From NCBI RefSeq assembly GCF_048403405.1, contig NZ_CP183129.1: DNA of 64,000 bases, one strand, 5' to 3'. The DNA comes from Escherichia coli (GTDB taxonomy: Bacteria > Pseudomonadota > Gammaproteobacteria > Enterobacterales > Enterobacteriaceae). This document shows, one piece after another, positions 1,189 to 63,210 of this stretch (position 1 is the first letter of the stretch; each line of letters opens with the position of its first letter). Both the position numbers and the translations under genes were made by a program. The notes below the pieces were generated by a model. The model had not been told where the DNA came from and did no database searches. It saw only the letters and a program-made list of their open reading frames with translations.

Positions 1189-3778
<2,590 letters not shown>

Positions 3779-11341: not shown

Positions 11342-14300
11342 TAATTACCTCCTTCGGATGGATATCCGTTATTAGAAAGTTTTTGTTGCACCCACTGATC
11401 AATGATTTCGGCCAGATGTGTGCTGGTAGCGCGATCTTGCAGTATTGACCAGTGCTCCCCTGAAAAATAGTGATGTTGGGTATGTGGCGGTAATCGTTGG
11501 TACCACTCTTTTTCAGGTGATGTCCATTCTGTTGGGTGGTTGGTGGCTTCCAGCCATAAACAGGCGATATCATCAGATAATGGTAGGTCACTTTCAGGTA
11601 GGAATGACATAAGTCTTTTAGTGCATGCAAGCTGCTTATTTTCATCTGATGAACTATCTGAGTCATCATGACAAAATTTAATAAAATCATGTCGATAGAC
11701 GGGATCTATTAATACTAATAATACGGAATGATTTTGTTGCGAGAGTTGTTCTGCAAGGTAACTGGCAATAAAAGCACCATATGACCAACCAATAAGAATA
11801 TAAGGGCCAGTCTGTTGTGCTGTTTTTATGCTAGATAAATGTAATGATAACAATGTATCCAAATCAGTTAGTTTTGAAGCATCTGTAACTGTTAATCCCC
11901 ACACTGTATTATTTAACGACTCAGCAAGAGGTAGGTAAACACCGGGATCACCATCAGAAGCATGTACCATAAAGTAGTGGTAAGGTTTTGGAGCAGATAC
12001 AGCGCTTAGAGGTATCAAAGAGGAGTACTCTCGTTGAGATTGCTTTTCCTGCTCTAAATGAGCACAAAAATCGGCTAAGCATGGATAGGTAAAAATCTGT
12101 TGTAATGTTGCTGGATATCCCCGTTGATGTAATTGGCTGATCATTTTGGTTGCAATCAAACTATCTCCTCCAGAACGGAAGAAATCATTTGTACTATTGA
12201 CCTCACGACCTAATAACTCAGACCATAATGCAATGATTTCATTAATCATATTGGTTGGTACATCAGGTATTGCAACAGGTTGTATCTGTTCATTTAGCTC
12301 TTGAGCGGATGATGTTGCTATGCCATTAAGGGTTGCTTCAATATTTTCACATTGGAACAACTCAAAAGAGTCGATATTCTGATCAAGAGAATGAGATAAA
12401 TAATCACGTAATTTACCTAAATAAGGTTTTCCTCCACGAGTGGGAGAGGCTAAAAAGAGTGTTTGTCGCAAAGATGAGGAATCTGTTTGGGGCCATTGAC
12501 CAATAGTTTCAAAACCAGTATTGATTAAAATATCATGCCAACTTTCACTATCAAGCATCGCTTTATTCGTCAATATACGCTTATCTTGATATGCACTTAA
12601 TCCCTCAATAAAGCCAACAGTCGCCATTTGCATAGCACTTTGACACTCGGTTGCTTCGATAAATAATAAATAGCCTTGAGGTTTTAACAGGCTTCTAATC
12701 CGTTTTAGTGCGTGGCCGATATGTGATGCATCATGTAATACATTAGATGCAATGATCAGATCATAGCCATTATCTGGATGATGAGAAAATTGTATTGGTG
12801 CATTAATATCAAAGAGTTGATAGCGCATTTCTCCTACAGCAGTGAATTTTTTTCGCGCTTTATCAAGGAAGTAATGTGATATATCAGTAAAGGTGTATGA
12901 GTAATGCGTATTCTTAAGTACTGCGACTATACCTTGAGTGGTAGCTCCTGTACCTGCCCCTATTTCTAAAATATTGAGTGAAGATGTTGCACCAACCATT
13001 GCACTAACAATATCTTTTGCACATTGATTTAAATAATTTAGTGCAGGGTGTTTGGCGTATAGTGCTGTGGTAATTTCATCTGAATTAAAAAGTAGTGAAA
13101 GAGGAGAAACCTTACCACTAAAGAGTAATTCATGTTGGGTTAGTGATTGTTCAAGGTAATCCCAAAGTACATATTCCCAATCATTAACAGGTTGTTGAAA
13201 TACTGGGGCAGATAAACATAAGTTAATAAACTGTGTTGTGGCATAAAACTGATCACCCTCTTTGGTTAATAAGTGATGCAGGCATAATAAATCTAGCCAC
13301 TGACTAAGTAGCCTCTCATACTGAGGCTTTGCTTTTAAACGAGCCACTATTTCAGCTAGGGTGATTGGTGTGTTTAGCTCGGTAAAAAGAGCATTTCGAT
13401 ACAGTGTGTGACATATGCCATACCGTGCTCGTTCCTCAAATCGTTGCCAACTCTTTTCAATAATGTCACTGAGTGAAGCTGATGGCGAAAGTAAATTAGG
13501 TAACCAATTGGGCTGTTTAATAACGGATAGTGGAATATCAGAAGAGGCTTCAAACAGTAATTGTAGAGGAGGCTCTACTTTCGTATCGTCTTTTACCATT
13601 ACCATAGCATGAGCACGTTTGATTTGCGGATGATTTTCCAATGTTTGCTCGAGTTGTTGATAGCGTGATTGGAGGTGATTATCTATTGCTAAATGTTGAT
13701 ATGAAGGAAGTTGCGCAATAATCTTATCAACTGATTGATTATTATCTTCATCTTGGCATAATTGAGTGATCAAGCTTTGATAATCAGAGAACATCATTGT
13801 TAATAAACCGTCAGCAAAGATGTCATCCATGCAGAACCAATTTAATGTTAGCCCCTCTTTTCCTTCCATTACTTGGTGATCTAACCAAACTTGAGGTGTT
13901 TGCGCGAAGCTATATACGGGTTGGCCGAAAAGCTGATTTAATGCTTCATCAATATTGTCACCATCTAGTGTCATACCTAACATGCTAGTAAATACAATAG
14001 GTAACAGAGATTGGCTACTATCCCCTTTATAGCGTCCCCATTCACGTAAAATCTCTACACCATTTACTTGGGACTTACTTAAATGTTGCCAAAGTCTGCG
14101 CTGTATTTTTGCCATTGACTCATTTAATGTACAGTCGTTATCTAGATAAATATCTATAGGGAGTACAGAGGTAAAATCACCAATAAGTTGTGTAACATCT
14201 GGGTGCCATGGTTGACGATTAAAGAAAGTTAAGTTTAGTGTAAAGGCTGGGTATTTTGTCCAGCGACCTAAAACTAAAGCAAAAAGTGTTAAAAGCCCTG

Positions 14301-35396: not shown

Positions 35397-35401
35397 AGAG
35401 A

Positions 35402-37549
35402 ATGAGTGATCGTTATGTGATAGAGGCCTGGCTGCGACCGGCGGTGGAATTGAACAGTGCTCTGGTGTCCGGCGGGGCGGCGTTTGTGTGTGCGGTAGCG
35501 CCCTGGGCAGTGGCATTGTCTCCGTCCGTGAGTTATGTCACCGCCGGTGCGTTTGCCGGTTTTTCCGCATTGCGGGCACATCAGGGATTCCGGGTATTAC
35601 GTTACCGCCGGAATCTCCGGCGTCTGCCCCGCTATCAGGTGACGTCGGCACAGGTGCCGGTCAGCCGGCAGCGTCTGTTTCTGGGAAAAGGGTTTCAGTG
35701 GCAGCAAAAACACACGCAACGCCTGCTGGAAACCCAGCGTCCGGAAGTGGAGCGGTATGTTCAGCCGCCGGCACATTACCGGCTGGCCCGGCAGTTTGAA
35801 CTCCGTTTTGAATCCCGTTTTCCGGCGGTTTGCCGGCTTTTGCAAAAAGACAGTTGGCTGAATCCGGTCCGCCCGCTGACGCCGGTGGGGGGGAATCCGG
35901 TGTTACACGGTGTGGAGCCGGATGAGGTGAATGTGACCATGGATTTGCGTGAACGGGTTGGTCATATGCTGGTACTGGGGACCACCCGTGTCGGCAAAAC
36001 CCGTCTGGCGGAAGTGCTGATCACTCAGGATATCCGCCGGGGGAATATCACGATTGTTTTTGATCCGAAAGGGGATGCGGATTTATTGCGCCGGATGTGG
36101 GCGGAAGCGCATCGTGCGGGGCGCAGTGAGGAGTTTTATGTTTTTCACTTGGGCTGGCCTGATATCAGTGCCCGTTATAACGCCATCGGGCGTTTTGGCC
36201 GAGTATCGGAAGTCGCGGGGCGGGTTGCCGGCCAGTTATCCGGGGAAGGGAACAGCGCGGCGTTCCGGGAGTTTGCCTGGCGGTTTGTTAATATCATTGC
36301 CCGGGCACTGGTTGCTCTGGGGGAGCGTCCGGATTATGCCAAAATTTTACGTTATGTCACCAATATCGGGGAACTCTATCAGACATATTCGATGCAGGTG
36401 ATTAAAGCACAACTACCTGATTTGTTTGCCCAAATCGAGAATGCGCAGAACGCGCTGACGGTCGAGGATGTGCCCCGTCATCTGCAAAGTGATCCGAAAG
36501 CTGTGGCTATCTGGGCAACGGAGCTGGCGTTAAGTAGTGAGAAAGGGAAAAAAATCTATGATCCGATTTTGGACGGGCTGCGCAGTGCGATCCGTTATGA
36601 CCGGACCTATTTTGATAAAATAGTGGCTTCTCTGCTGCCGTTACTGGAAAAACTGACTACCGGAAAAACTGCCGCCCTGTTGTCGCCGGATTACACCAAT
36701 ATGCAGGATCCCCGTCCGATTTTTGACTGGCAGCAGGTGATTCGGAAAAAAGGGATTGTATATGTCGGGCTGGATGCGTTATCGGATGCGGAAGTGGCGG
36801 CAGCGGTGGGGAATTCCATGTTTGCGGATTTGGTCTCGGTAGCCGGGCATATTTATAAATTCGGGACTCAGGATGGACTGCCGGAGGATGAGCACGCCGG
36901 AAAATTACCGATCAGCCTGCATTGCGATGAATTTAATGAACTGATGGGGGATGAATTTATTCCGTTACTGAACAAGAGCGGCGGCGCGGGGATTGAAGTG
37001 ACGGCCTACACACAGACCTGGTCTGATATTGAAGCCCGGCTGGGGAATGCGGCGAAATCGGCGCAGGTCACCGGTAACTTTAATACGCTGGTGATGTTGC
37101 GTGTCCGTGAACTGATGACCGCGAAATTACTGACGGAACAGTTACCGGAAGTGGATATTTACACCAAAACCCTGGTATCCGGGATCACCGATATTTCCAA
37201 TCCGAGGCAGGGGAGTGATTTTACCTCCAATACCCAGGACAGGGTCAGTATGGTGGCTAAACCGCTGCTGTTACCGGCAGATATTATTCAGTTACCGAAA
37301 GGACAGGCGTTTGCGCTGCTGGAAGGCGGGAAGTTATGGAAAATCAGGATGCCCCTGCCGGCGGCAGAGGCTGATGCCCTGATGCCACCGGATTTACAAA
37401 AAATCGCACAGTATATGGAGAAAAATTACCGTACCGGCGAAACTTGGTGGACTGCGTCATCATTTTCGGATGCGCGGTATGACAGCGGCGGTATGAATGT
37501 GGCTGAGATGGCACCGGATACCGAAGGGGGCAACGATGGCAACTGCTGA
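35402..37549 (+). CDS. traD: Conjugative coupling protein TraD (TIGR03743-like, ICE/SXT-TOL class)
   Basis: Two N-terminal TMs, Walker A LGTTRVGKT, DxxE-type Walker B region HCDEFNEL, about 715 aa. ATG 35402 is chosen because the upstream part of the track ORF is the iteron array. Confidence 0.85.
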   Translation: MSDRYVIEAWLRPAVELNSALVSGGAAFVCAVAPWAVALSPSVSYVTAGAFAGFSALRAHQGFRVLRYRRNLRRLPRYQVTSAQVPVSRQRLFLGKGFQWQQKHTQRLLETQRPEVERYVQPPAHYRLARQFELRFESRFPAVCRLLQKDSWLNPVRPLTPVGGNPVLHGVEPDEVNVTMDLRERVGHMLVLGTTRVGKTRLAEVLITQDIRRGNITIVFDPKGDADLLRRMWAEAHRAGRSEEFYVFHLGWPDISARYNAIGRFGRVSEVAGRVAGQLSGEGNSAAFREFAWRFVNIIARALVALGERPDYAKILRYVTNIGELYQTYSMQVIKAQLPDLFAQIENAQNALTVEDVPRHLQSDPKAVAIWATELALSSEKGKKIYDPILDGLRSAIRYDRTYFDKIVASLLPLLEKLTTGKTAALLSPDYTNMQDPRPIFDWQQVIRKKGIVYVGLDALSDAEVAAAVGNSMFADLVSVAGHIYKFGTQDGLPEDEHAGKLPISLHCDEFNELMGDEFIPLLNKSGGAGIEVTAYTQTWSDIEARLGNAAKSAQVTGNFNTLVMLRVRELMTAKLLTEQLPEVDIYTKTLVSGITDISNPRQGSDFTSNTQDRVSMVAKPLLLPADIIQLPKGQAFALLEGGKLWKIRMPLPAAEADALMPPDLQKIAQYMEKNYRTGETWWTASSFSDARYDSGGMNVAEMAPDTEGGNDGNC

Positions 37550-38285
37550 GGTACGTCAGGAAACCCCGCGTCACCCGGCAAAAGACCCCGGTTTGCCGGC
37601 TAAATTGTTGTGGCACTGGCCGTGGGCCATCATCGGGGTATTACTGGCCTCCTGGGTATGCAGTCTGTTGATTGAGTGGGTCGGGATTGCGTTTTTCTGG
37701 GCGGACGAAGGGGCGGAGCACAGCCGGCAGGTGATGTTAACCGAGAGCGGGTATCTGTCAGAAGGGTTTACCCGTAGTCTGCTGATGTCCAGTCCGGCGC
37801 AGTGGCTGGCTCATACCGTTGAACAGGCATACCGGTGGCTGTTTGTGGAGTCCGGGCTGATGGAGAGCTGGCAGAACGTGTATCCTGTCAGCGGGAATGC
37901 AGTTGCCCGTGAACTGGATGACTGGCGGATTTGGTTTGTGTCCGAGCTGAGAGACTATCTGCTGGCGACGGTTTATGTGACGCTGACCTTTTTTATCCGG
38001 GTGACTATTCTGGTGCTGTCGATGCCCCTGTTTGTTATGGTGCTGTTGGTGGGCATGGTGGAAGGCTTTAACCGGCGTGATTTGCGGCGTTATGGTGCCG
38101 GGTATGAATCCAGTTTTGTGTATCACCACGCCAAGCGTTTTGTTAAGCCGGCCTTTTTTGTTCCGTGCATGATTTATCTGTCCTGGCCGTCTGCCATTTA
38201 CCCTAATCTGGTGTTGTTACCGGCGGCTCTGTTGTTCGGGCTTGCGGTGGCAGTGGCTACCGCGTCATTTAAAAAATATTTATAG
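37536..38285 (+). CDS. ICE membrane protein, PFL_4697 family-like (TIGR03747)
   Basis: Start overlaps the traD 3' end. Has 4-5 TM spans. Syntenic slot after traD. Confidence 0.55.
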   Translation: MATAEVRQETPRHPAKDPGLPAKLLWHWPWAIIGVLLASWVCSLLIEWVGIAFFWADEGAEHSRQVMLTESGYLSEGFTRSLLMSSPAQWLAHTVEQAYRWLFVESGLMESWQNVYPVSGNAVARELDDWRIWFVSELRDYLLATVYVTLTFFIRVTILVLSMPLFVMVLLVGMVEGFNRRDLRRYGAGYESSFVYHHAKRFVKPAFFVPCMIYLSWPSAIYPNLVLLPAALLFGLAVAVATASFKKYL

Positions 38286-55915: not shown

Positions 55916-55944
55916 TTGACGAAAAAAGAAAGTTTGATTAAATT
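55916..55944 (+). promoter_or_regulatory. Sigma70-like promoter ahead of pseudoknot array 1
   Basis: TTGACG (55916-55921), 17 nt, TAAATT (55939-55944). The array starts about 14 nt downstream. Confidence 0.5.
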
Positions 55945-55957
55945 TACCACGTTACAC

Positions 55958-56176
55958 CGTTGCTTAATGCAACATTGCCAATGCTTCGGTTGTCTGAGAG
56001 AAGCGCCTACGGGTGACAACAATGCCAATCCGGCAATCTGAGAGGAACGCCTACGGGTGATTGCCACTGCCAATCCTCGGGTCATCTGAGACGAGGGCCT
56101 ACGGGCGATGACAGAACTCCGTTCGTCCTTGAAATCGACGGAGGGTGATAACAGAATAGCGTTATCATCAGGATTA
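55958..56176 (+). ncRNA. Tandem pseudoknot array 1 (three units plus two hairpins), STAXI-like
   Basis: Units start at 55977, 56024 and 56069, each GCCAAT-S1-S2-CTGAGA-S1'-GCCTACGGG-S2'. Helix pairs are GCTTC/GAAGC and GTTGTC/GACAAC; CC/GG and GGCAATC/GATTGCC; CCTCG/CGAGG and GTCATC/GATGAC. Hairpins lie at 56117-56143 and 56146-56167. Confidence 0.65.
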
Positions 56177-56389
56177 ACTGCACTTCAGTGACCATGTCAC
56201 AGCTATCCGGTCACTCGGATATCCACAAAAAAGCAGAGTATGCGATAACGTGTATCTGCCTCTTCTGATGTGTTCTGACGAATACGTCCTGCTTTCTGCA
56301 ACCTTTGTATGCCCGGTATGACGCGTTTCCATTGCGCAGCTTTGGAAAGCGGCATCTTCGGAGCAATACATTGAGCAGCAGAATGATGG

Positions 56390-56436
56390 GCGTGCGTCAC
56401 TTTCGTCAAGTGAAACGAAGACAAAGTGACGCACGC
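56390..56436. other. Long hairpin (14-bp perfect inverted repeat) in an untranslated stretch
   Basis: GCGTGCGTCACTTT (56390-56403) pairs with AAAGTGACGCACGC (56423-56436), with additional inner pairs TTCGT/ACGAA. Confidence 0.6.
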
Positions 56437-56824
56437 AAGTGCATACGCTCAGAACGCTTCAATACTGGTCTTACAGCAAAACTGACAATCTGACAGACAT
56501 GTAATGCATTGCTCAGAACGGCTGAAAGTCTTTCAACGCTCAACGTTTATATGATGATAAAAACGTATAACATTATGAAAAAAGGAGAAAAAACGACACG
56601 ATACCAAGGCGACGTCAGGAAACTGACGGACGGAGGTGCCCTGATAACGGGGGCCGGTCTGATGACCGCAAACAGTTCAGAGAACTGATTTGATACCTCT
56701 CAACAACTCAACCTTTTATCGCCCCGGTGCTCAGGTATCTGTCAGGTCGCAGGATGCGCAATATAAAACCGTCGCGCCGGGAAAAGGTAACCAGTTGAGA
56801 GCGAAAGAGGCGGAGAATCAGAGA

Positions 56825-57733
56825 ATGTCCAGAAGAGCAAAAGCCCTGTCCCGTGAAATGCATATCCTTGCACGTCAGGCCGGAGGGAGCTTTAAAACCA
56901 TTGCAGACCGGGTCAAAATTGCAGAACGGGTTGCGGCAGAGCTGGCCGGGTTGAATATTCAGATACGATCTGTTGAGCAACTGAAATCCCGCCATATTGA
57001 AATGTATATCCATGCCCGCAGAGAACAGAATATCAGTTTACGCAGCTGTCAAAACGAAATGTCGGCTATCCGGGCGATATTTCGTGTTGCCGGACGTCAT
57101 AAACTGGCTGACCCTAAACATGAGCGCCTCAGTAATGAGGCGCTGGGGCTTTCAGGTGCCAGCAGGGCTGGCACCCGTACCGCGATATCGGACGAGCGCT
57201 TTCACGAAGCGCTCGCTCGGATTGAGCCTTATGATCAGGGGGTGGCATTAACTATGCAGTTATCCCGTAGTCTGGGATTGAGAAATGAAGAAGCCGTGCA
57301 GTCAGTAAAATCATTACGGACCTGGCAACAGGCGCTTAAAAACGGTAAAGATCGCGTTCATGTGGTTTTTGGGACAAAAGGAGGCAGACCCCGTGAAGCA
57401 TTAGTGCCGGATAAAGCCCGTGTATTAACATTAATTAATAAAGCCATTGAATATGCGGATAAACATAACGGTTATTTAATTAATCGTCCGTCATTACATT
57501 CTGCCAAAGATCGTTATATTAATGTGATGCGACGGATAGGCGGATTTATTCACGAAGAATCAAATCATGGTTTACGGTATGCCTATGCTCAGGATGTTGA
57601 AAAATATTATCTCAGTCAGGGATTCAGTCAAAAGGAAGCCTATGCATTAACCTCCATGGATTTAGGGCATGGTGACGGTCGTGGCGATTATATTAAACGG
57701 GTTTATAGTCAGAAAGGAGATATTGAGGAATAA
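56825..57733 (+). CDS. Tyrosine-recombinase-like protein (phage integrase-fold, Integrase_1-type)
   Basis: Candidate catalytic residues: LGLRNEEA (Arg), HGLRYAYA (His-x-x-Arg), GDYIKRVY (Tyr). ATG 56825 follows GGAG. The TTG-initiated track ORF from 56690 is less likely. Confidence 0.65.
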   Translation: MSRRAKALSREMHILARQAGGSFKTIADRVKIAERVAAELAGLNIQIRSVEQLKSRHIEMYIHARREQNISLRSCQNEMSAIRAIFRVAGRHKLADPKHERLSNEALGLSGASRAGTRTAISDERFHEALARIEPYDQGVALTMQLSRSLGLRNEEAVQSVKSLRTWQQALKNGKDRVHVVFGTKGGRPREALVPDKARVLTLINKAIEYADKHNGYLINRPSLHSAKDRYINVMRRIGGFIHEESNHGLRYAYAQDVEKYYLSQGFSQKEAYALTSMDLGHGDGRGDYIKRVYSQKGDIEE

Positions 57734-57740
57734 GATAAAA

Positions 57741-58352
57741 ATGAAAGTCTGTTTAATTATTTTGTTTATTAATTTTGCTTTTTGTTTTCCGTTAATGGCG
57801 AAGACGTTATTTTTAGGTGATTCATTAACGGCTGTTTATGAAATGTCAGCAAAATATGTTTTGGATGAAAAAATAAAAACAGAATATGTTTCCGGTTCGG
57901 GGTTAATAAATAAAAGTAAAAAAGATTGGATCGCTTTCGTGAATAATTTCGATTTGCGGGAGTTTGATAATGTGATTATTAGTCTCGGAACAAATGATTT
58001 TGTTCAATATGGTTCGGATGAATGGCTGAAATATTACAGTCTGGTATTTCAATTCATTGCTGAAATTCAAAGTGAAAATCCGTTAGCGACAATTGTCTGG
58101 ATATCTCCACCACATTTAAAAAATCCGGAACATGAACGTTATTTAATACATACCCGGCATATAATTAAACACAGTGCGATGTTATTAAATATTCATTATC
58201 TGGATATTAATCAGCCTCATATATTAGGAACGCAATGGCAATCTGTTATTCATAATGAAACTGTACGAACTGATGATGGAATACATATTACCCGTAAAGG
58301 GGGAGTACGGGTGATCAGAGAAGTGGTAAAAATCCTGAATGGGCAGGATTGA
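57741..58352 (+). CDS. Secreted SGNH/GDSL-family hydrolase
   Basis: Signal peptide. Block I FLGDSLT, block III LGTND, block V DDGIHIT. It is markedly more AT-rich than the flanking genes. Confidence 0.75.
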   Translation: MKVCLIILFINFAFCFPLMAKTLFLGDSLTAVYEMSAKYVLDEKIKTEYVSGSGLINKSKKDWIAFVNNFDLREFDNVIISLGTNDFVQYGSDEWLKYYSLVFQFIAEIQSENPLATIVWISPPHLKNPEHERYLIHTRHIIKHSAMLLNIHYLDINQPHILGTQWQSVIHNETVRTDDGIHITRKGGVRVIREVVKILNGQD

Positions 58353-58377
58353 CAAAGATAAAAAAACGGCTAAAAAT
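58349..58377 (+). promoter_or_regulatory. Sigma70-like promoter ahead of pseudoknot array 2
   Basis: TTGACA (58349-58354, overlapping the hydrolase stop), 16-17 nt, TAAAAA/AAAAAT (58371-58377). Confidence 0.5.
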
Positions 58378-58391
58378 GAATCTGCTTATCT

Positions 58392-58612
58392 CGTTGCGTA
58401 ATGCAACTTGCCAATGCTTCGGTTGTCTGAGAGAAGCGCCTACGGGTGACAACAATGCCAATGTTCCGGCAATCTGAGAGGAACGCCTACGGGTGATTGC
58501 CACTGCCAATCCTCGGGTCATCTGAGACGGGAGCCTACGGGCGATGACAGAACTCCGTTCGTCCTTGAAATCGACGGAGGGTGATAACAGAATAGCGTTA
58601 TCATCAGGATTA
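58392..58612 (+). ncRNA. Tandem pseudoknot array 2, STAXI-like (direct repeat of 55958-56176)
   Basis: Near-identical to array 1. Unit 2 has the fuller S1 helix GTTCC/GGAAC (3-nt indel relative to array 1). The array is followed by TTTTT. Confidence 0.65.
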
Positions 58613-58640
58613 TTTTTACGCAACGCTTCATATAACCTGC

Positions 58641-58700
58641 CCGCTGACGGGGAAATCACCCGTCATCAGGGAATTTCTCCGTTTTTTCAGGAGAAATTCA
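58641..58700 (+). promoter_or_regulatory. Leader: conserved ACGGGG...CCCGTCA hairpin plus SD-sequestering hairpin
   Basis: First hairpin: TGACGGG / CCCGTCA (58645-58665). Second: a perfect 10-bp stem GAATTTCTCC (58671-58680) / GGAGAAATTC (58690-58699) with a T-rich loop. The GGAG SD lies inside the stem, and the ATG is at 58701. Confidence 0.6.
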
Positions 58701-59063
58701 ATGAAGGTATCTACATTTCCGGAATCGTCTTTTTTTGACGATCTGCACTCTCTCACGCAACTGCATCACCTCTCAGGTGAGCTCGACATGGTTCTTGCTT
58801 TTGTCCGTCTGGATATTGGCGAGCACCCGGACGAAGATAATTTTCCGCCAAACTTCTGGATAATCAGTGCCGTTGCAGAGCAACTGGGCGCGTTATCTGT
58901 GGAGGCTGATTTTACCCGTCCACATCTTGAGAAAATGGTCCGCGCTGTCTGGAAAGCGGCTGAGCAAACGCCTTATGCGTCTGACTTTCGCCGTATCTAC
59001 AACGATGCGATCAAAAATGCACAGTTTGAAGATCCGGTTGAAGCGCTGATGTTTGGTGCTTAA
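58701..59063 (+). CDS. Hypothetical acidic protein (120 aa)
   Basis: ATG start with the structured leader described above. No family recognised. Confidence 0.55.
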   Translation: MKVSTFPESSFFDDLHSLTQLHHLSGELDMVLAFVRLDIGEHPDEDNFPPNFWIISAVAEQLGALSVEADFTRPHLEKMVRAVWKAAEQTPYASDFRRIYNDAIKNAQFEDPVEALMFGA

Positions 59064-59144
59064 CGGCGGACATTCACTGATTTTATGACCCATACGGGAA
59101 AACATCCCGTGAGGGCTGTATTCCCTTATCTGAGGATAGCCCTT

Positions 59145-59553
59145 ATGACTCTTTTTACATTGAATTATGGTGTTGCCCACGTAATGTCTGGTATTGCCAG
59201 TTATTTATTTCCGCATTCCCGTGTTTCTCAGCAACTGAAGGCCGTTGCTAATGATGCCCGGATGCTGAAAATCACCGCAGAAGAACTGGAGGTGATACGT
59301 TTGGACGAAAAACGGATGTATCAGAGCGGAGATTACAGAGAACTGCCGTTTATTGAGCTTGATTTGTATACAACGGCATTTCGTTTTGGCGCCCTGATTT
59401 ACTATGGACTCGCAAACCGGTGCCCCCGCATTTTTGCTTCACCGGCTGACAGTCATCGCTGAGCGGCTCGATCCGGAAATCTGGAATGAAGCCTGGCGCT
59501 GGGGTTACCGCTGCTGCCTGCAACACGAAAATGAAAAGCATGTAACCGACTGA
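59145..59553 (+). pseudogene. Paralog of the 59629-60051 gene, with a +1 frame break in a C5/T5 homopolymer zone
   Basis: ATG 59145 follows GAGGA. Frame 0 stops at 59460-59462. The +1 frame continues APAFLLHRLTVIAERLDPEIWNEAW..., which aligns to PWPACLLRRLPDIGQRIDAVIWQKGC of the downstream gene. Upstream matches include NYGV/IYGI, DARML/EARTL and LYTTAFRFGALI/LYDAGFAYGRLL. Confidence 0.55.
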
Positions 59554-59628
59554 TTTAACGGACTCACAGGTGTCAGTCAGCTACCCTGAAATGGGGCTGC
59601 TTCCATTTACTGATCAGGTTTGATAACC

Positions 59629-60051
59629 ATGATTTATGGCATTACCCGCGGACTGTTCTTTGTGGCCGATCACGTCTGTCGCTATTCCCGGAGTTGGGAA
59701 TGGCTGATGTGGCTGGTTGAGGAAGCCCGGACACTGCGAAATGTTGAGGCTGATTTGAAACTGGCTGAAAGGTATGCCGGTGAGCAAAACCGCCCTCATT
59801 CCATTTCGCTGATGAAGTGTACGCTTTATGATGCCGGATTTGCTTACGGCAGATTATTACTGTGGCGTGCGGATGGTCTGATGAGACCCTGGCCGGCATG
59901 TCTGCTTCGCCGTTTACCGGATATCGGTCAGCGGATTGATGCAGTGATCTGGCAGAAAGGCTGTGAAGCCGGCTTGGATGAGACCGTCAGTGAATGGATG
60001 GCAATGGAGATGGCTGATGAATACCTTGTCGGTATCGAACTGAGCGACTGA
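59629..60051 (+). CDS. Hypothetical protein (140 aa), intact paralog
   Basis: ATG 59629 (the track ORF starts at TTG 59620). No family recognised. Confidence 0.55.
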   Translation: MIYGITRGLFFVADHVCRYSRSWEWLMWLVEEARTLRNVEADLKLAERYAGEQNRPHSISLMKCTLYDAGFAYGRLLLWRADGLMRPWPACLLRRLPDIGQRIDAVIWQKGCEAGLDETVSEWMAMEMADEYLVGIELSD

Positions 60052-60084
60052 TTTGCCGGCATTCATTCTTTTTTTACTTACCTA

Positions 60085-60147
60085 CCCGACGGGGAAACTC
60101 CCCGTCAGGTGGACGTTTCTCCGTCTTTTTTTACCGGAGAAACACAC
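60085..60147 (+). promoter_or_regulatory. Leader: conserved ACGGGG...CCCCGTCAGG hairpin plus SD-sequestering hairpin
   Basis: First hairpin: GACGGGG / CCCCGTC (60088-60106), loop AAACT. Second: a 9-bp stem GTTTCTCCG (60115-60123) / CGGAGAAAC (60135-60143) with a T-rich loop. GGAGA is inside the stem, and the ATG is at 60148. Confidence 0.6.
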
Positions 60148-60504
60148 ATGTCTGTTTTACTGCCAGAAAACAAACCGTTTTCATTTCTGAGTCTGATCAT
60201 GCAACGGCTGTACCGTTTTTATGACCGTATACCGTTTGTTTCGTCAGGGATACCCGGTGAATTACCGTGGATAAGTAACCGAACCGGCCGGCGCGCTTAC
60301 CGTGCGACGGTGGTGAAAGTGAATCCCCGGCAGTTCAGGATCCGCATTACTGTACGTCTGGGCGCGCATTCGAAAGAATACCGCTTTCATTCGTTGATAA
60401 CCTCGCTGGACAGCAGGACATTTTGTTCCATAAAAGCGGCCTCCCGTGCCGGATTTGCACTGACATACCAGCTGGCACAGGTGCGTTATGCCTGGTGTCG
60501 CTGA
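60148..60504 (+). CDS. Hypothetical basic protein (118 aa)
   Basis: ATG 60148 is preferred over the GTG 60109 track start because of the SD position. No family recognised. Confidence 0.5.
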   Translation: MSVLLPENKPFSFLSLIMQRLYRFYDRIPFVSSGIPGELPWISNRTGRRAYRATVVKVNPRQFRIRITVRLGAHSKEYRFHSLITSLDSRTFCSIKAASRAGFALTYQLAQVRYAWCR

Positions 60505-60550
60505 TTTGTTGTACTGATAGCACCATTGACTTTTTGTTATGACCCCGCCC

Positions 60551-60593
60551 GGCGGATTGATTTCCGTCAGGAGATGAATCCGCCATTTTTTTA
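60551..60593 (+). terminator. Hairpin plus T7 tract directly upstream of the next gene's SD
   Basis: GGCGGATT / AATCCGCC outer stem with inner pairs around CCGTCAGG, followed by ATTTTTTT. SD GAGGA lies at 60602-60606 and the ATG at 60615. Confidence 0.55.
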
Positions 60594-60614
60594 ATCAGAA
60601 TGAGGATTTATCAC

Positions 60615-61127
60615 ATGGGATATACACATTATTTTACACAAAAACAAAGCGTTGACCCCCTGATGTGGCAGAACTTCCGTGAACATCTGGACAAGCTCTA
60701 TCACCACTATCTGGCCAATCCCATATCCGCAGAGCAGATTTGCGGCGGATACCCAGATAAACCTATTGTGTTGTGTGATGGCCTGGAGGAAAAACGGCTG
60801 AATGATGGCTCATTATTCACCGACGACGGTGAGGCGCTTTGTTTTAACGGTAATGCGGCTGATGACATGAATCATGAGACGTTTATTGTTCAGCGCGAAA
60901 TCCCCGTAGAGGACTACTGGGATTTCTGCAAGACAGCATACAAACCCTATGACGTGTTTGTAGTCGCGGCATTACTGTTGTTGTACAACCTGTGCCCGGG
61001 ATATTTTTCGGTCTCTTCTGACGGGGATATCCGGGACTGGCAGCCGGTGCTGGACTATGTCAGTCAGGTATTTCCTTATCTTATCCTGACGTTACCGGAA
61101 GGGATAGGTTTACCGGAGGCAGGATAA
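60615..61127 (+). CDS. Hypothetical protein (about 170 aa; MGYTHYF...)
   Basis: ATG 60615 sits 8 nt after GAGGA. No family recognised. Confidence 0.55.
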   Translation: MGYTHYFTQKQSVDPLMWQNFREHLDKLYHHYLANPISAEQICGGYPDKPIVLCDGLEEKRLNDGSLFTDDGEALCFNGNAADDMNHETFIVQREIPVEDYWDFCKTAYKPYDVFVVAALLLLYNLCPGYFSVSSDGDIRDWQPVLDYVSQVFPYLILTLPEGIGLPEAG

Positions 61128-61774
61128 TGGCCAGAGCCTGTACGATACGGGAACTGATAGCGGATTTATCCCGCTGCAATCCGGAGGCATTCGTCTTGTG
61201 TGAGATGTGGTTCCCCGATGATGTTACCTATGTTGATGAAACGGCTTGTCCGGCAGAGACACGGGCAACATTAACGCATGTTGCACATCATTTTGATGCG
61301 GAGCTGGGGATCAACTGGGACACGCTGGCGTGTGCGTTATCGTGTGTCAGAGATGCTGAGCAGAAGGGACTCGATATTTACTTTTATGCCAGTGAAAAGC
61401 GTGGTACAGACAAAAGCCGGATACCCGCCTCACGTTACGCAGAAGCGGACAGCGACGGCGATATTGAAGTCGGGTATTTCCGTAAGGTTAATGCGCTGTT
61501 TAAGTGGGTGCATGACCATATCGGGGCTTTTGAGAACTGTGAAAAGGTGCTGGTGACAGAGGCCCATCTGCGGGCTTTACAGCAGGACTTGCAGGCACTG
61601 ACACCGGAAAACTGTCAGACACGGTTCCCGACCACTGAGGGCTTTTTCTTTGGTTCAACGGCTTATGATGAGGCGTACTGGGCTGATGTGGAAGGCGTCA
61701 GACGCTGGCTGTCAGAGATAACGGAGACGTTTGACTTTGACGCAGAGTCACTGTTTTTTGTGGCCTGGTGGTAA
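61127..61774 (+). CDS. Hypothetical protein (215 aa; C-terminal GFFFGSTAYDEAYWADVE...FFVAWW)
   Basis: TAATG overlap with the upstream gene. No family recognised. Confidence 0.55.
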   Translation: MARACTIRELIADLSRCNPEAFVLCEMWFPDDVTYVDETACPAETRATLTHVAHHFDAELGINWDTLACALSCVRDAEQKGLDIYFYASEKRGTDKSRIPASRYAEADSDGDIEVGYFRKVNALFKWVHDHIGAFENCEKVLVTEAHLRALQQDLQALTPENCQTRFPTTEGFFFGSTAYDEAYWADVEGVRRWLSEITETFDFDAESLFFVAWW

Positions 61775-61780
61775 TCAGGT

Positions 61781-61852
61781 AAGGTGTTTCCCCGGGAAGC
61801 ACTGAACACATTTTAATCAGTGTTTCCACTGGAAACGCCGGTTGAAAATTAA
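61781..61852 (+). repeat. Two tandem 36-bp iterons of the same family as 35253-35396
   Basis: Unit 1 contains GTGTTTCCCCGGGAAGCAC. Unit 2 contains the perfect palindrome GTTTCCACTGGAAAC at 61822-61836, followed by GCCGGTTGAAAATT. GTGTTTCC recurs at 61784 and 61820, 36 bp apart. Confidence 0.8.
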
Positions 61853-61874
61853 CCATATTGTTTTTTCACCTGAT

Positions 61875-61911
61875 GGTGTATCTCACCGTCAGGACGGGAT
61901 ACACCTTTTTT
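61875..61911 (+). terminator. Strong hairpin plus T6 between the iterons and the ardC ribosome-binding site
   Basis: GGTGTATC / GATACACC outer stem with inner CCGT/ACGG pairs (CCGTCAGG core), then TTTTTT. SD GAGGG lies at 61915-61919. Confidence 0.55.
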
Positions 61912-61926
61912 ATTGAGGGTATTCCG

Positions 61927-62901
61927 ATGAAAAAATCTGACCGTAAACGCCGTCCGGCAGCGGATAAGCCGGTTCGCGATATTTATCAGGAAGTGACTGA
62001 CCGTATTGTGGCCGCGCTGGAAAAAGGCACCCGTCCGTGGAAACGACCATGGCGGCCGTCGGAAGGGACAGGCACCGGTTTTCCGGTGAACGCCCTGACC
62101 GGTCATTCCTACCAGGGGATAAATGTGCTGCTGTTATGGTTGTCGGCGGCGGAGCAGGGCTTTGGTTACGATATCTGGCTGACTTACCGTCAGGCACAGC
62201 AACTGGGTGGCCATGTCCGTAAAGGCGAAATGGCGACGAATACTGTGATATTCAAACCGGTGAAGGTGCCGGCAAAAGACCGTCACGGTGAGCTGCTGCG
62301 GGATGAACACGGTGAGGTGGTGATGACGGAGGTGCCGATGATAAAGGCGAATCCGTTATTTAACATAGCCCAGTGTGATGACCTGCCGGCGCATTTTTAC
62401 GAAAACCGGCGACTACCCGGAGAGGAGACAGCAGGGATAACCCTGCCGGCCACGCACCGGGTGCTGGATATCCTGAATGCCAGCGGCGTGAAGGTGACCA
62501 GTGCGGCGCAGAACCGGGCGTATTACAGTCCGTCACAGGACCGGATTGTGATGCCGCTGTCGTCACAGTTTGACCGGAATGCCGATTACCAGGCCACCTT
62601 ACTGCATGAGTTGGTGCACAGTACCGGTCATCCGTCCAGGCTGGCCCGTGAAGGCATCACCTCATCGTCCCTGAAGTTTGGTGACCCGCTGTACAGTTTT
62701 GAGGAGCTGGTTGCGGAAATGGGCAGCGCTTTTCTTTGTGCGCAGTTAAGCGTCGAGGGAGAAGTGAACCATGAAAGCTATCTTGACAGCTGGCTGCGGG
62801 TACTGAAATCGGACAAAAAAGCGTTGTTCCGGGCCGCCGGGCAGGCCCGCCAGGCCTGTGAGTTTTTACTGAATGTGGCCGCATCCCGACAGGCCGCGTA
62901 G
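61927..62901 (+). CDS. ardC: ArdC antirestriction protein (ssDNA-binding N-domain plus zinc-metalloprotease domain)
   Basis: RPWKRPW, YQGINVLLLW, WLTYRQAQQLGGHVRKGE, FNIAQCDDL, HELVHSTGH (HExxH), FEELVAEMGSAFL. Confidence 0.85.
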   Translation: MKKSDRKRRPAADKPVRDIYQEVTDRIVAALEKGTRPWKRPWRPSEGTGTGFPVNALTGHSYQGINVLLLWLSAAEQGFGYDIWLTYRQAQQLGGHVRKGEMATNTVIFKPVKVPAKDRHGELLRDEHGEVVMTEVPMIKANPLFNIAQCDDLPAHFYENRRLPGEETAGITLPATHRVLDILNASGVKVTSAAQNRAYYSPSQDRIVMPLSSQFDRNADYQATLLHELVHSTGHPSRLAREGITSSSLKFGDPLYSFEELVAEMGSAFLCAQLSVEGEVNHESYLDSWLRVLKSDKKALFRAAGQARQACEFLLNVAASRQAA

Positions 62902-62910
62902 GAGACTGCG

Positions 62911-63210
62911 ATGAACAAAATGACCATTATCCGCTTTCAGTTACTGGTACATCAGTTACTGCAAGTGCATTACGGCATTACGCTGAGTGATACCGGATTG
63001 TCCGATGATGCTGAGGTGTCCCGGATGATTGAACTCGGGATATCGCCGGTATCGGTGGTCAACCGTCTGGTGGATAAGTACCACCTGGATAAACTGAATG
63101 CATCCTGTTATCTGCCGGCATCCCCGTATGTCAGTGACAGCGATGCCTTACTTGCACAGGCTCAGCTGAGCGGTGCCATTAACCCGGATGTCATGCCGGA
63201 TAATCCTTAA
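62911..63210 (+). CDS. Hypothetical protein (99 aa)
   Basis: ATG start 10 nt after the ardC stop. No family recognised. Confidence 0.5.
   Translation: MNKMTIIRFQLLVHQLLQVHYGITLSDTGLSDDAEVSRMIELGISPVSVVNRLVDKYHLDKLNASCYLPASPYVSDSDALLAQAQLSGAINPDVMPDNP

Follow-up and report, generated by a model that had tools for sequence, protein, structure and literature searches.

STAXI RNA arrays head transcription units of an ICEPm1/SGI-4-type element in Escherichia coli, one of them next to a predicted MOB_M relaxase gene

Two direct repeats in the window, i.e., the analysed stretch of 64,000 nt of E. coli DNA, are full-length STAXI elements and make up the 5' termini of consecutive transcription units of an integrative conjugative element (ICE) of the ICEPm1/SGI-4 type with a type G mating-pair apparatus. 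STAXI folds as RNA, and a reading as single-stranded DNA (ssDNA) is disfavoured. Array 1 most likely starts the mobilization transcript across a putative oriT. All features given below are located on the plus strand, unless stated otherwise.

Identity, anatomy, and RNA structure of the arrays

The assignment to STAXI, suggested in the preliminary description of this DNA, is confirmed by the Rfam covariance model RF01728 (gathering score 40.5), which is matched end to end (model positions 1-153 of 153) by array 1 with 112.1 bits over 55958-56115 and by array 2 with 123.3 bits over 58392-58551. A third array, situated outside the window, scores 121.3 bits. As described before, arrays 1 and 2 are direct repeats of about 220 bp (55958-56174 and 58392-58610), which differ by a 1-nt indel, a 3-nt indel, and three substitutions; they are approximately 97% identical and flank a recombinase-like operon. 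The definition of array 1 (55958-56174) rests on the RF01728 match, the covariation of the units, the terminal pseudoknot, and the fact that identity with arrays 2 and 3 stops exactly at 56174. Array 2 (58392-58610), which comprises a 5' hairpin, three units, and a terminal pseudoknot, is defined by its RF01728 match, the unit covariation, and the terminal pseudoknot.

In array 1, a 5' hairpin (55959-55973) is followed by three pseudoknot units (55977-56021, 56024-56065, and 56069-56113) and a terminal, divergent pseudoknot (56117-56174). The three units beginning with GCCAAT reported for each array were recovered, with CCAAT at 55978, 56025, and 56070 in array 1 and at 58411, 58458, and 58506 in array 2, whose units span 58410-58454, 58457-58501, and 58505-58549 and whose terminal pseudoknot ends at AGGAT (58606-58610). 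A 3-nt deletion has shortened helix S1 in unit 2 of array 1. Units inside one array have diverged in their helices (approximately 76% identity). Among the arrays of one genome the RNA part is 82-97% identical, and the promoter is not kept to this degree. Nothing sets the arrays of the window apart from the STAXI family, and the motif itself is already known; its description, dated to 2017 in the preliminary account, was published by Weinberg et al. in 2010 (PMC2864571).

The two interleaved helices S1 and S2 proposed for every unit hold in a set of 56 distinct units from many genera (one genome per species), which were picked by their loop strings only. In this set 98.2% of the helix cells are paired, compared to 33-50% in controls with slid partners, and two-sided changes are seen in each of the 11 pairs of S1 and S2 (11 of 14 pairs overall). 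The loop strings UGAGA and CCAAU are invariant across units. Two strings previously considered as unpaired have to be corrected: the C of CTGAGA is paired and covaries with the 3' arm of S2, and GCCTACGGG folds into a hairpin of 3 bp with a UACG tetraloop as its cap, such inserted caps being C(UNCG)G in 54 of the 56 units. Likewise, what had been taken for two hairpins closing each array is a fourth, divergent pseudoknot situated 3' of the end of the Rfam model, with a loop-tail helix that is paired in 95% of the cells and shows two-sided changes in 5 of 5 pairs.

Wobble pairs fall on the sense strand, with 88 G·U compared to 7 A·C in the 56 units, and one G·U pair is conserved in 49 of these. 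UNCG caps stabilize RNA and not DNA, an argument already put forward by the original STAXI authors, who favoured RNA (PMC2864571). A DNA fold computed for the complement of 58330-58640 leaves the -35 and -10 boxes of array 2 unpaired and shows no Frpo-like duplex. Helix covariation, G·U bias, UNCG tetraloops, and a sigma-70 promoter at fixed distance thus argue for STAXI being RNA rather than ssDNA; the ssDNA role considered in the preliminary description is disfavoured by the sense-strand wobbles, the 54 UNCG caps, and the unpaired promoter boxes.

Promoters and genomic context

The promoter-like signals noted upstream of the arrays were located as sigma-70-type promoters at 55916-55944 (array 1, TTGACG-17-TAAATT, consensus scan) and 58349-58377 (array 2, TTGACA followed by TAAAAT or AAAAAT, with a 17-nt spacing to AAAAAT), with predicted transcript starts near 55951 and 58384. 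The slot relative to the first CCAA is fixed: it is occupied by a promoter (score of at least 9 of 12) in 38 of 59 dereplicated arrays, compared to 3% of control slots. The earlier view that the arrays head two transcription units stands; each array has its own promoter, and the units are co-oriented with the arrays. No intrinsic terminator was found after array 1 or array 2. Transcripts were reported elsewhere: strand-specific RNA-seq of Pectobacterium lists three STAXI RNAs, one of them a 228-nt species after topB (PMC4710047), and both STAXI and EFASI RNA were detected by RT-qPCR (PMC12370729). In EHEC grown in LB just 2-6 reads fall on STAXI loci (PMC5331693), so the promoters are not constitutively strong there.

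The context in the E. coli ICE fits STAXI, with topB before array 3, an Integrase_1 gene after array 1, and ArdC after array 2. Considering 55 loci, the first same-strand gene downstream of STAXI encodes an Integrase_1 protein in 25 and a DUF3577 protein in 17 cases. More than half of the arrays are not situated beside a relaxase gene or EFASI, and some occur singly, next to unrelated genes. Of 5,426 complete E. coli genomes, 667 contain STAXI-like sequences, the tellurite/urease TAI islands of O157:H7 being among the carriers.

Between array 1 (end at 56174) and the gene starting at 56825, the preliminary description had overlooked a strand-symmetric inverted repeat, the EFASI RNA, and the identity of the gene itself. 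The conserved inverted repeat (56392-56434, no strand assigned) consists of the arms GTGCGTCACTTT and AAAGTGACGCAC around a variable centre that is still able to form a hairpin. It was found at every relaxase-linked locus, on relaxase-less plasmids, and in SpLE1/TAI, with an arm conservation of approximately 0.9-1.0 in a map of 25 diverse loci. It folds equally well as either DNA strand (z approximately -6) and lacks a wobble bias (154 Watson-Crick, 5 G·T, and 4 A·C pairs); it is likely the oriT repeat. The same map revealed a short conserved block (56483-56506, no strand assigned) between the repeat and EFASI. EFASI (RF02957), a motif distinct from the STAXI arrays and no part of them, is matched over the full model at 56593-56744 with 78.1 bits (gathering score 51.2), 80 nt upstream of the relaxase-like gene. 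Its position several hundred nt past STAXI and just before a gene annotated as integrase is the published association; the name stands for "Enterobacteriaceae, Frequently Around STAXI and Integrases" (RF02957). EFASI is absent after arrays 2 and 3; the order STAXI-then-EFASI recurs on three small plasmids, in SpLE1, and in SGI-4.

The gene at 56825-57733 encodes a predicted MOB_M relaxase of the tyrosine-recombinase fold (Pfam Integrase_1 and Phage_int_SAM_2). The label "integrase-like" of the preliminary description holds in so far as the product belongs to Integrase_1, but the protein is exactly WP_004252296.1 (RefSeq; encoding locus 100% identical in DNA), which serves as one of the seeds for the MOB_M profile (bioRxiv 10.64898/2026.01.13.699239). 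Residues R153, K185, H248, and R251 do not vary among 17 homologs, at least 80% conservation was seen for the LGH motif and C-terminal tyrosines, and the tyrosine-recombinase core Arg-Lys-His-Arg-His plus Tyr is present. BLASTP against TcpM, which belongs to Pfam Phage_integrase and not to Integrase_1, aligned only the generic HxLR box (E = 1.1). Because the adjoining gene encodes a MOB_M seed, array 1 is placed in a predicted oriT/mobilization region; the oriT of MOB_M systems is placed between the type G mating-pair operon and the relaxase gene (bioRxiv 10.64898/2026.01.13.699239). Second in the relaxase operon is a DUF459/SGNH-GDSL hydrolase-like gene (57741-58352; Pfam, RefSeq annotation), whose stop codon overlaps the -35 box of array 2.

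Array 2 is followed by conserved leader hairpins at 58636-58703 (RNA fold of -34.6 kcal/mol, z = -4.55), of which a 10-bp stem (58671-58699) sequesters in the fold the GGAG ribosome-binding site of the ORF starting at 58701. The arrangement TTTCTCC...GGAGAAA repeats in approximately 15 dereplicated loci and in SGI-4. According to the ORF list and RefSeq annotation, the operon headed by array 2 (58701-62901) comprises six ORFs and, as expected from the preliminary description, ArdC (61858-62901); searches against Pfam, NCBIfam, PHROGs, and PADLOC assigned no family to the six ORFs. The label "leading region" is plausible for this ArdC block. Array 3, with topB upstream, leads a DUF3577 gene.

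The two-array design is also present in SGI-4, where the relaxase is 58% identical to that of the window and the two arrays are approximately 68% identical to each other, which indicates that the arrangement is ancient. Small plasmids and TAI/SpLE1 of O157 carry the STAXI-repeat-EFASI module without a relaxase gene; at these loci a promoter-like site in the expected slot is present only in three cases (L079, L080, and L082), with 8 of 12 matches. TAI islands are classed as oriT-only hitchers (bioRxiv 10.64898/2026.01.13.699239). SGI-4 and TAI are 65% identical over the interval of this module, matching the "60% identical oriT region" stated in the same preprint, where a citation reports the homologous SGI-4 region as an experimentally localized oriT.

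Possible function of the STAXI RNA

We give an even chance to the reading that STAXI is an RNA domain with its own promoter, which heads transcription units of the ICE and acts in cis on the downstream RNA. This domain of approximately 225 nt comprises the 5' hairpin, three H-type pseudoknots with UNCG-capped inserts, and the fourth, divergent pseudoknot. The transcript of array 1 would run untranslated for approximately 0.9 kb across the inverted repeat and EFASI before entering the predicted MOB_M relaxase gene, and array 2 would start the leader of the ArdC block. STAXI may set in cis the amount of downstream RNA that is made, kept, or correctly processed; protection of the 5' end and of the long untranslated leader against RNase E and Rho, or guidance of maturation, are possible routes. 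One RNA-level control would thus cover the relaxase/oriT module, the anti-restriction block, and the DUF3577 gene. A pure stabilizer does not explain the invariant UGAGA and CCAAU loops, which suggest a specific partner, and the retention of STAXI by relaxase-less hitchers fits an RNA or transcription role in oriT at least as well as a leader role. As a tentative possibility, it is tempting to speculate that STAXI and EFASI are the RNA parts of MOB_M modules and that a transcript of promoter, STAXI, oriT hairpin, and EFASI would be needed in the donor for nicking or transfer, like the sgm-sRNA of SGI1; if true, the retention of the entire transcribed module by oriT-only hitchers would be accounted for.

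We regard it as rather unlikely that STAXI has a role in trans or in the relaxosome, where it would join EFASI as an RNA component required for MOB_M-type DNA processing, or that transcription through the repeat activates oriT, with the other copies being secondary. Such a role is in agreement with a specific partner of the invariant loops, the near identity of the arrays within one element, the discrete 228-nt RNA of Pectobacterium (PMC4710047), and the maintenance of the whole STAXI-repeat-EFASI module on relaxase-less plasmids and TAI islands, and a precedent is given by SGI1, which depends on an RNA that acts in trans and is encoded in the interval from oriT to mpsA. However, the essential part in SGI1 is the 3' core, at the position of EFASI, with a dispensable 5' part, and the majority of STAXI arrays lies away from a relaxase gene or EFASI. 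Decidedly unlikely is an action as ssDNA on the transferred strand, as ssi priming signal or as Frpo-like single-strand promoter. The placement before ssDNA-handling and anti-restriction genes parallels Frpo of the F and ColIb plasmids, the ssi of pIGRK just downstream of mobK corresponds to the position of array 2, and the presence of three dispersed copies in the ICE would be in line with several priming sites; against this reading stand UNCG caps that stabilize RNA and not DNA, the G·U pair kept in 49 of 56 units, the duplex sigma-70 promoter at conserved distance, and its unpaired -35/-10 region in the complementary-strand fold. The wobble bias would also be compatible with G·T pairs if the plus strand is transferred, but if the genes obey the rule by which the transferred strand is the template, the entering strand is the complement and the wobbles turn into A·C mismatches.

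Very unlikely is a ToxI-like decoy or antitoxin RNA against an RNA-binding toxin or a defence protein of the recipient, as tandem pseudoknots behind a strong promoter on a mobile element and the ORFs of no known function after array 2 might suggest, since the array units have diverged helices (approximately 76% identity) compared to the near-identical ToxI repeats, no endoribonuclease toxin gene follows the arrays, the downstream genes vary (relaxase, DUF3577, and others) and match no toxin family, a terminator between array and gene is missing, and there were no PADLOC matches. The lowest probability is assigned to DNA-level recombination sites for the adjacent recombinase or a functionless recent duplication; both would account for 220-bp direct repeats of approximately 97% identity around a recombinase-like operon, but covarying helices and the strand-specific wobble bias signal selection at the RNA level, the two-array design is ancient and also present in SGI-4, and single arrays occur beside unrelated genes.

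STAXI has been without a function since 2010 and EFASI since 2017; the MOB_M/oriT context makes the function of STAXI testable, as both motifs occur in the predicted oriT module of MOB_M relaxases, with the mobilization RNA of SGI1 as precedent. If these RNAs are needed for transfer, the "oriT" regions of the MOB_M family would be transcription units beyond DNA sites, which would affect the prediction of oriT-only hitchers and provide a target for blocking the spread of such islands; RNA-dependent relaxosomes would be widespread in Enterobacterales and no peculiarity of SGI1, and through the additional STAXI copies this RNA-level switch would also govern the anti-restriction block and the DUF3577 gene. 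If they are merely stabilizing leaders, the locus represents an ordinary instance of a known motif.

Comparison with known systems

The type III antitoxin RNAs ToxI, CptI, and TenpI are, like STAXI, repeats on mobile elements that form pseudoknots in tandem and are preceded by a promoter. ToxI repeats are near-identical, processed by the adjacent toxin, and followed by a terminator and the toxin gene, none of which was seen for the STAXI arrays. Frpo and ssi of the F and IncI leading regions are, like STAXI, repeated elements in front of ssb-like and anti-restriction early genes. However, Frpo is a long imperfect DNA hairpin, through which the -35 and -10 boxes arise in the transferred strand, whereas the STAXI promoter is an ordinary duplex that is unpaired in ssDNA folds, and the structure of STAXI, unlike Frpo, carries RNA signatures. 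Within the MOB_M systems (TcpM, MobK, and MpsA) the window protein is among the seeds by a bioinformatic assignment; the preprint handles the oriT region as DNA alone, and the term "RNA" is absent from its main text (bioRxiv 10.64898/2026.01.13.699239).

The mobilization module of SGI1 (PMC6414798, PMC9299015) has the layout P5 promoter, oriT, sgm-sRNA, and mpsA/mpsB, to which the window is likened on the basis of the published layout description, with the promoter at 55916-55944, the repeat at 56392-56434, EFASI at 56593-56744, and the gene at 56825. Both comprise a near-consensus sigma-70 promoter, a long untranslated transcript across inverted repeats, and a structured RNA directly before the gene of a tyrosine-recombinase-like relaxase; a 5' part with influence on RNA yield or maturation, known from SGI1, is proposed for the window as well. 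Differences concern the 5' end, which in SGI1 is a single terminator-like repeat and in the window a pseudoknot array, and the N-terminal domain, which is fused in the window protein whereas MpsA requires the separate MpsB. RNA dependence of mobilization is shown for SGI1 only, where the primary transcript affects through its 5' part how the essential sgm-sRNA matures, the essential part being the 3' core adjoining mpsA and the 5' part dispensable though helpful (PMC9299015).

STAXI itself was described as tandem pseudoknots, with two or three units, of Enterobacterales hosts (Weinberg et al. 2010, Genome Biol 11:R31), and the published neighbours comprise topoisomerase, anti-restriction, "XerDC integrase", and Ssb-like genes, the first three of which are shared by the ICE. 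To this description we add the fourth pseudoknot, the conserved promoter, the homogenization of arrays within an element, and the MOB_M/oriT context.

Structure, strand and expression of the STAXI arrays

Exactly three matches were returned by an Rfam scan of the whole window, all on the plus strand, full-length and above the curated thresholds. Two of these are STAXI (RF01728), namely array 1 at 55958-56115 (112.1 bits) and array 2 at 58392-58551 (123.3 bits), in the two regions for which the preliminary description had proposed this motif. The third is an EFASI RNA (RF02957, 56593-56744, 78.1 bits), situated between array 1 and a relaxase-like gene. As had been described, the arrays are direct repeats of approximately 220 bp; two indels (of 1 and 3 nt) and three substitutions distinguish them. 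The STAXI motif itself is already known and goes back to Weinberg et al. 2010 (PMC2864571), not to 2017 as previously cited; these authors mentioned ssDNA and favoured RNA on account of UUCG tetraloops. The motif from 2017 is EFASI, whose full name, "Enterobacteriaceae, Frequently Around STAXI and Integrases", fits the layout present in the window.

When one genome per species was scanned for the pattern, 74 loci were obtained, nearly all in the Enterobacterales. From these, 56 distinct 45-nt units, selected by the conserved loop strings only, were aligned without gaps. Each unit consists of xCCAAU, S1a (5 nt), 1 nt, S2a (6 nt), UGAGA, S1b (5 nt), a hairpin GCC-UNCG-GGU and S2b (6 nt), S1 and S2 being the two interleaved helices. 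Standard pairs occupy 98.2% of the cells, compared to 33-50% after shifting the partners by 1-3 columns. In S1 and S2, each of the 11 pairs shows changes on both sides, and the observed covariation was reached in none of 500 shuffles, in support of the covarying pseudoknots described earlier. Of the two strings regarded as invariant and unpaired, CTGAGA and GCCUACGGG, the UGAGA loop holds, but the C that precedes it in CUGAGA is part of S2, and GCCUACGGG folds into a hairpin of 3 bp with UACG as its loop. What had been taken for "two further hairpins" closing each array is in fact a fourth pseudoknot with the topology of the units: hairpin 1 has a loop (ACCUU-UGAAA, or UCCU-UGAAA in the window) that base-pairs to the tail 3' of hairpin 2 (AAGGU, or AGGA in the window). 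In a MAFFT alignment of 40 sequences built regardless of complementarity, this helix between loop and tail is 95% paired, with five out of five pairs changing on both sides; column counts were used because a test of own against other complements is blurred by wobble-tolerant U-rich variants. The nested minimum-free-energy fold of the whole array (z = -0.27) is uninformative, since pseudoknots lie outside that model. On a 3.1-kb E. coli plasmid (L078, about 3063-3130, minus strand) an extra pseudoknot unit occurs upstream of the Rfam STAXI start, and thus the number of units varies beyond three.

Considering 14 pairs in the 56 units, 88 G·U were counted versus 7 A·C (39 versus 7 without the conserved G29·U38, which is G·U in 49 units), and the inserted hairpin is capped by C(UUCG)G or C(UACG)G in 54 of the 56. 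A sigma-70 promoter is situated at a fixed distance, the TTGA starts clustering between positions -63 and -60 relative to the first CCAA. Within a 48-nt slot, scores of at least 9/12 were observed for 38 of 59 dereplicated arrays versus 3% of 5,000 control slots, and scores of at least 10/12 for 20 arrays versus 0.3%, so that the promoters proposed earlier are retained. We conclude that STAXI is a sense-strand RNA; the former emphasis on ssDNA is not sustained in view of the G·U bias, the UNCG caps and the fixed promoter. A Frpo-like single-strand promoter was rejected, since a DNA fold of the complementary strand leaves the -35/-10 region unpaired. A mimic of a type III antitoxin was rejected as well, because a toxin gene is lacking, no intrinsic terminator was found 3' of arrays 1 and 2, and the units are diverged.

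Published transcript data give a mixed picture. Strand-specific RNA-seq of Pectobacterium lists three STAXI RNAs, one of them a 228-nt species termed "3'UTR: topB" (PMC4710047), and both STAXI and EFASI were detected by RT-qPCR in a STEC strain (PMC12370729). Only 2-6 reads per STAXI locus were reported for EHEC in LB (PMC5331693). The STAXI promoters are probably regulated.

Host element and genes associated with the arrays

A 3.4-kb part of the window is 100% identical to a chromosomal island in 27 out of 5,426 complete E. coli genomes, and the same region had no match in the plasmid collection. According to the RefSeq annotation, the island is an integrative conjugative element (ICE) at tRNA-Phe, about 92 kb in length, with PFL_/TIGR037xx type G transfer genes, SPI-7-type parA, dnaB and parB, as well as topB, taaP and an NRPS/PKS cluster. 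The ICE is also present in Proteus mirabilis and Providencia stuartii, and going by this occurrence and its gene content it is ICEPm1-like. In the matched genome NZ_CP166757.1 the coupling-protein gene traD (window about 35400-37550) is annotated as frameshifted, and thus this copy of the element may be unable to transfer alone. A second ArdC-family gene at the left edge (about 1-670) is annotated there as a frameshifted pseudogene beside IS remnants.

Outside the window, NZ_CP166757.1 carries a third array of the same ICE (about 4072612-4072772; 12613-12773 of locus L003, minus strand; 121.3 bits). It has the same orientation as arrays 1 and 2 and is located after topB, directly upstream of a gene annotated as DUF3577/"STY4534-family ICE replication protein". 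No STAXI match was obtained in the phage collection.

For 55 dereplicated loci, the first same-strand ORF encodes an Integrase_1 protein in 25 cases and a DUF3577 protein in 17, the remainder being small unassigned proteins. The ORF starts 650-870 nt downstream of the array in the Integrase_1 class and 80-240 nt downstream in the DUF3577 class. Array 2 is followed by a conserved leader (58636-58703) with a CCCG..GGGAAA..CCCG hairpin and a 10-bp stem, which buries the region of the ribosome-binding site and start codon of the ORF at 58701 (z = -4.55); this leader recurs in SGI-4 and many other loci. Further downstream, six unassigned ORFs precede ArdC and a CbtA-like gene. Sequence searches of NCBIfam, PHROGs, PADLOC and PDB gave nothing useful for these six ORFs or for DUF3577. 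The CbtA-like toxin gene (62911-63210) is situated directly 3' of ArdC, and upstream of it no CbeA-type antitoxin gene was recognized.

The gene downstream of array 1 (56825-57733) encodes RefSeq protein WP_004252296.1, one of four extra seed sequences of the MOB_M relaxases in a recent preprint (bioRxiv 10.64898/2026.01.13.699239). MOB_M relaxases, with TcpM, MobK and MpsA as characterized members, resemble tyrosine recombinases and often carry an integrase annotation; type G ICEs account for 44% of them, 56% are stand-alone, and the MOB_M profile has a cut-off of 84 bits (bioRxiv 10.64898/2026.01.13.699239). WP_004252296.1 retains the catalytic residues: R153, K185, H248 and R251 do not vary, and both the LGH motif and the C-terminal Tyr are conserved. 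The gene previously termed "integrase-like" is a predicted relaxase. BLASTP detected no similarity to TcpM, the two being too distant for pairwise comparison, and therefore the MOB_M assignment is a bioinformatic one. A DUF459/SGNH-GDSL hydrolase-like gene (57741-58352) is coupled to the relaxase-like gene, and a gene of similar size occupies the matching position in SGI-4.

A candidate origin of transfer between array 1 and the relaxase-like gene

Upstream of the relaxase-like gene, the interval that follows array 1 contains four conserved blocks in a map of 25 loci: an inverted repeat (56392-56434), 56483-56506, EFASI and 56760-56782. The repeat, a candidate oriT element, reads GCGTCACTT followed by G or T, and C or A followed by AAGTGACGC. 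All relaxase-linked loci have it, as do the plasmids without relaxase and SpLE1/TAI of O157 Sakai. Its arms hardly vary across genera, and the compensating changes in them keep strictly to Watson-Crick pairs. Since either DNA strand folds equally well (-19.2 and -18.9 kcal/mol) and there is no bias in the wobble pairs (154 Watson-Crick, 5 G·T, 4 A·C), the repeat, unlike STAXI, behaves as a DNA-level hairpin. In EFASI, the single-stranded and invariant CUCAACAACUCAAC ranks among the best conserved strings of this interval, and several loci have a conserved GCGCATAC-like string after the repeat. An 86-aa ORF antisense to the STAXI-repeat interval (56174-56434, minus strand) is probably not a gene, since it lacks a RefSeq annotation and overlaps conserved non-coding blocks.

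STAXI-like arrays were also observed on plasmids of 3-7 kb. STAXI, repeat and EFASI occur without the relaxase-like gene on E. coli p3 (L078, 3.1 kb), Rahnella pHW30076 (L079) and Pantoea pOC5aC (L080), as well as on the short contigs L006, L010, L014, L020, L022, L031, L052 and L062. Three of the small plasmids have STAXI and then EFASI on one strand and lack an integrase gene. In two of these, a distinct ColE1 RNAI replicon lies elsewhere, for which reason a ColE1 RNA II-like replication pre-primer, considered because of a Rop-encoding STAXI plasmid, was rejected. Most of these very small plasmids are typed as non-mobilizable in PLSDB, and they look like oriT-only hitchers of MOB_M elements. 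The survival of a cis-acting module without its enzyme is suggestive of an origin of transfer. MOB_M oriTs are located between the mating-pair operon and the relaxase gene, and SpLE1/TAI has been classed as an oriT-only hitcher (bioRxiv 10.64898/2026.01.13.699239); in SpLE1/TAI, a gene-free 1.5 kb holds STAXI (134 bits) together with an element resembling EFASI (48.9 bits, slightly below the threshold).

The circular form of SGI-4, pSGI4, has the order promoter, STAXI, repeat, EFASI, MOB_M gene, second gene, second STAXI and ArdC block; its relaxase, WP_033567157.1, is another MOB_M seed. On pSGI4 (NZ_CP061046.1), STAXI occupies 2051-2221, the repeat about 2492-2550 and EFASI 2697-2845. The two-array arrangement common to pSGI4 and the window is ancient, since the relaxases are only 58% identical and the two arrays of SGI-4 about 68% identical to one another. 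Between SGI-4 and TAI, the interval under consideration is 65% identical, in agreement with the 60% given for the TAI oriT region and the reported SGI-4 oriT in the preprint (bioRxiv 10.64898/2026.01.13.699239).

Role of STAXI and comparison with SGI1

Because STAXI also heads operons without repeat, EFASI or relaxase gene, the simplest common role would be that of a cis-acting 5' RNA module governing the fate of the transcript. It is possible that STAXI instead acts as a cofactor or binds a partner, as the relaxase-less hitchers keep the whole transcribed module. Furthermore, where one genome has several arrays (arrays 1 and 2 with the L003 array, and pairs in Cedecea, Citrobacter braakii, Klebsiella oxytoca, Phytobacter and Trabulsiella), their transcribed structured part is 82-97% identical, the promoter spacers being as diverged as those of unrelated arrays. 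This identity breaks off with the final base pair of the terminal pseudoknot and could stem from gene conversion or from selection for a shared partner. A role in ssDNA priming is unlikely; it is considered because in pIGRK an ssi is situated just 3' of mobK.

Thus, of the initial interpretation, STAXI, its promoters and its position at operon heads are kept; the emphasis on ssDNA, the "integrase" and the citation are replaced, and EFASI and the oriT context, which had been missed, are added. The value of the locus lies in two orphan RNA motifs tied to MOB_M mobilization modules, a connection that is directly testable.

The closest worked example for a transcript heading such a module is SGI1 (AF261825, mob region 1295-2065). 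There, a near-consensus promoter (ttgacg-16-taatat) drives a primary RNA of 650-700 nt across oriT; the 3' core of this RNA, immediately 5' of mpsA, acts in trans and is essential for mobilization, and the 5' part affects yield and maturation (PMC6414798, PMC9299015). The order in the window, with promoter, STAXI, repeat, EFASI and relaxase gene, matches that of SGI1, and EFASI is found in the position held by sgm-sRNA in SGI1.
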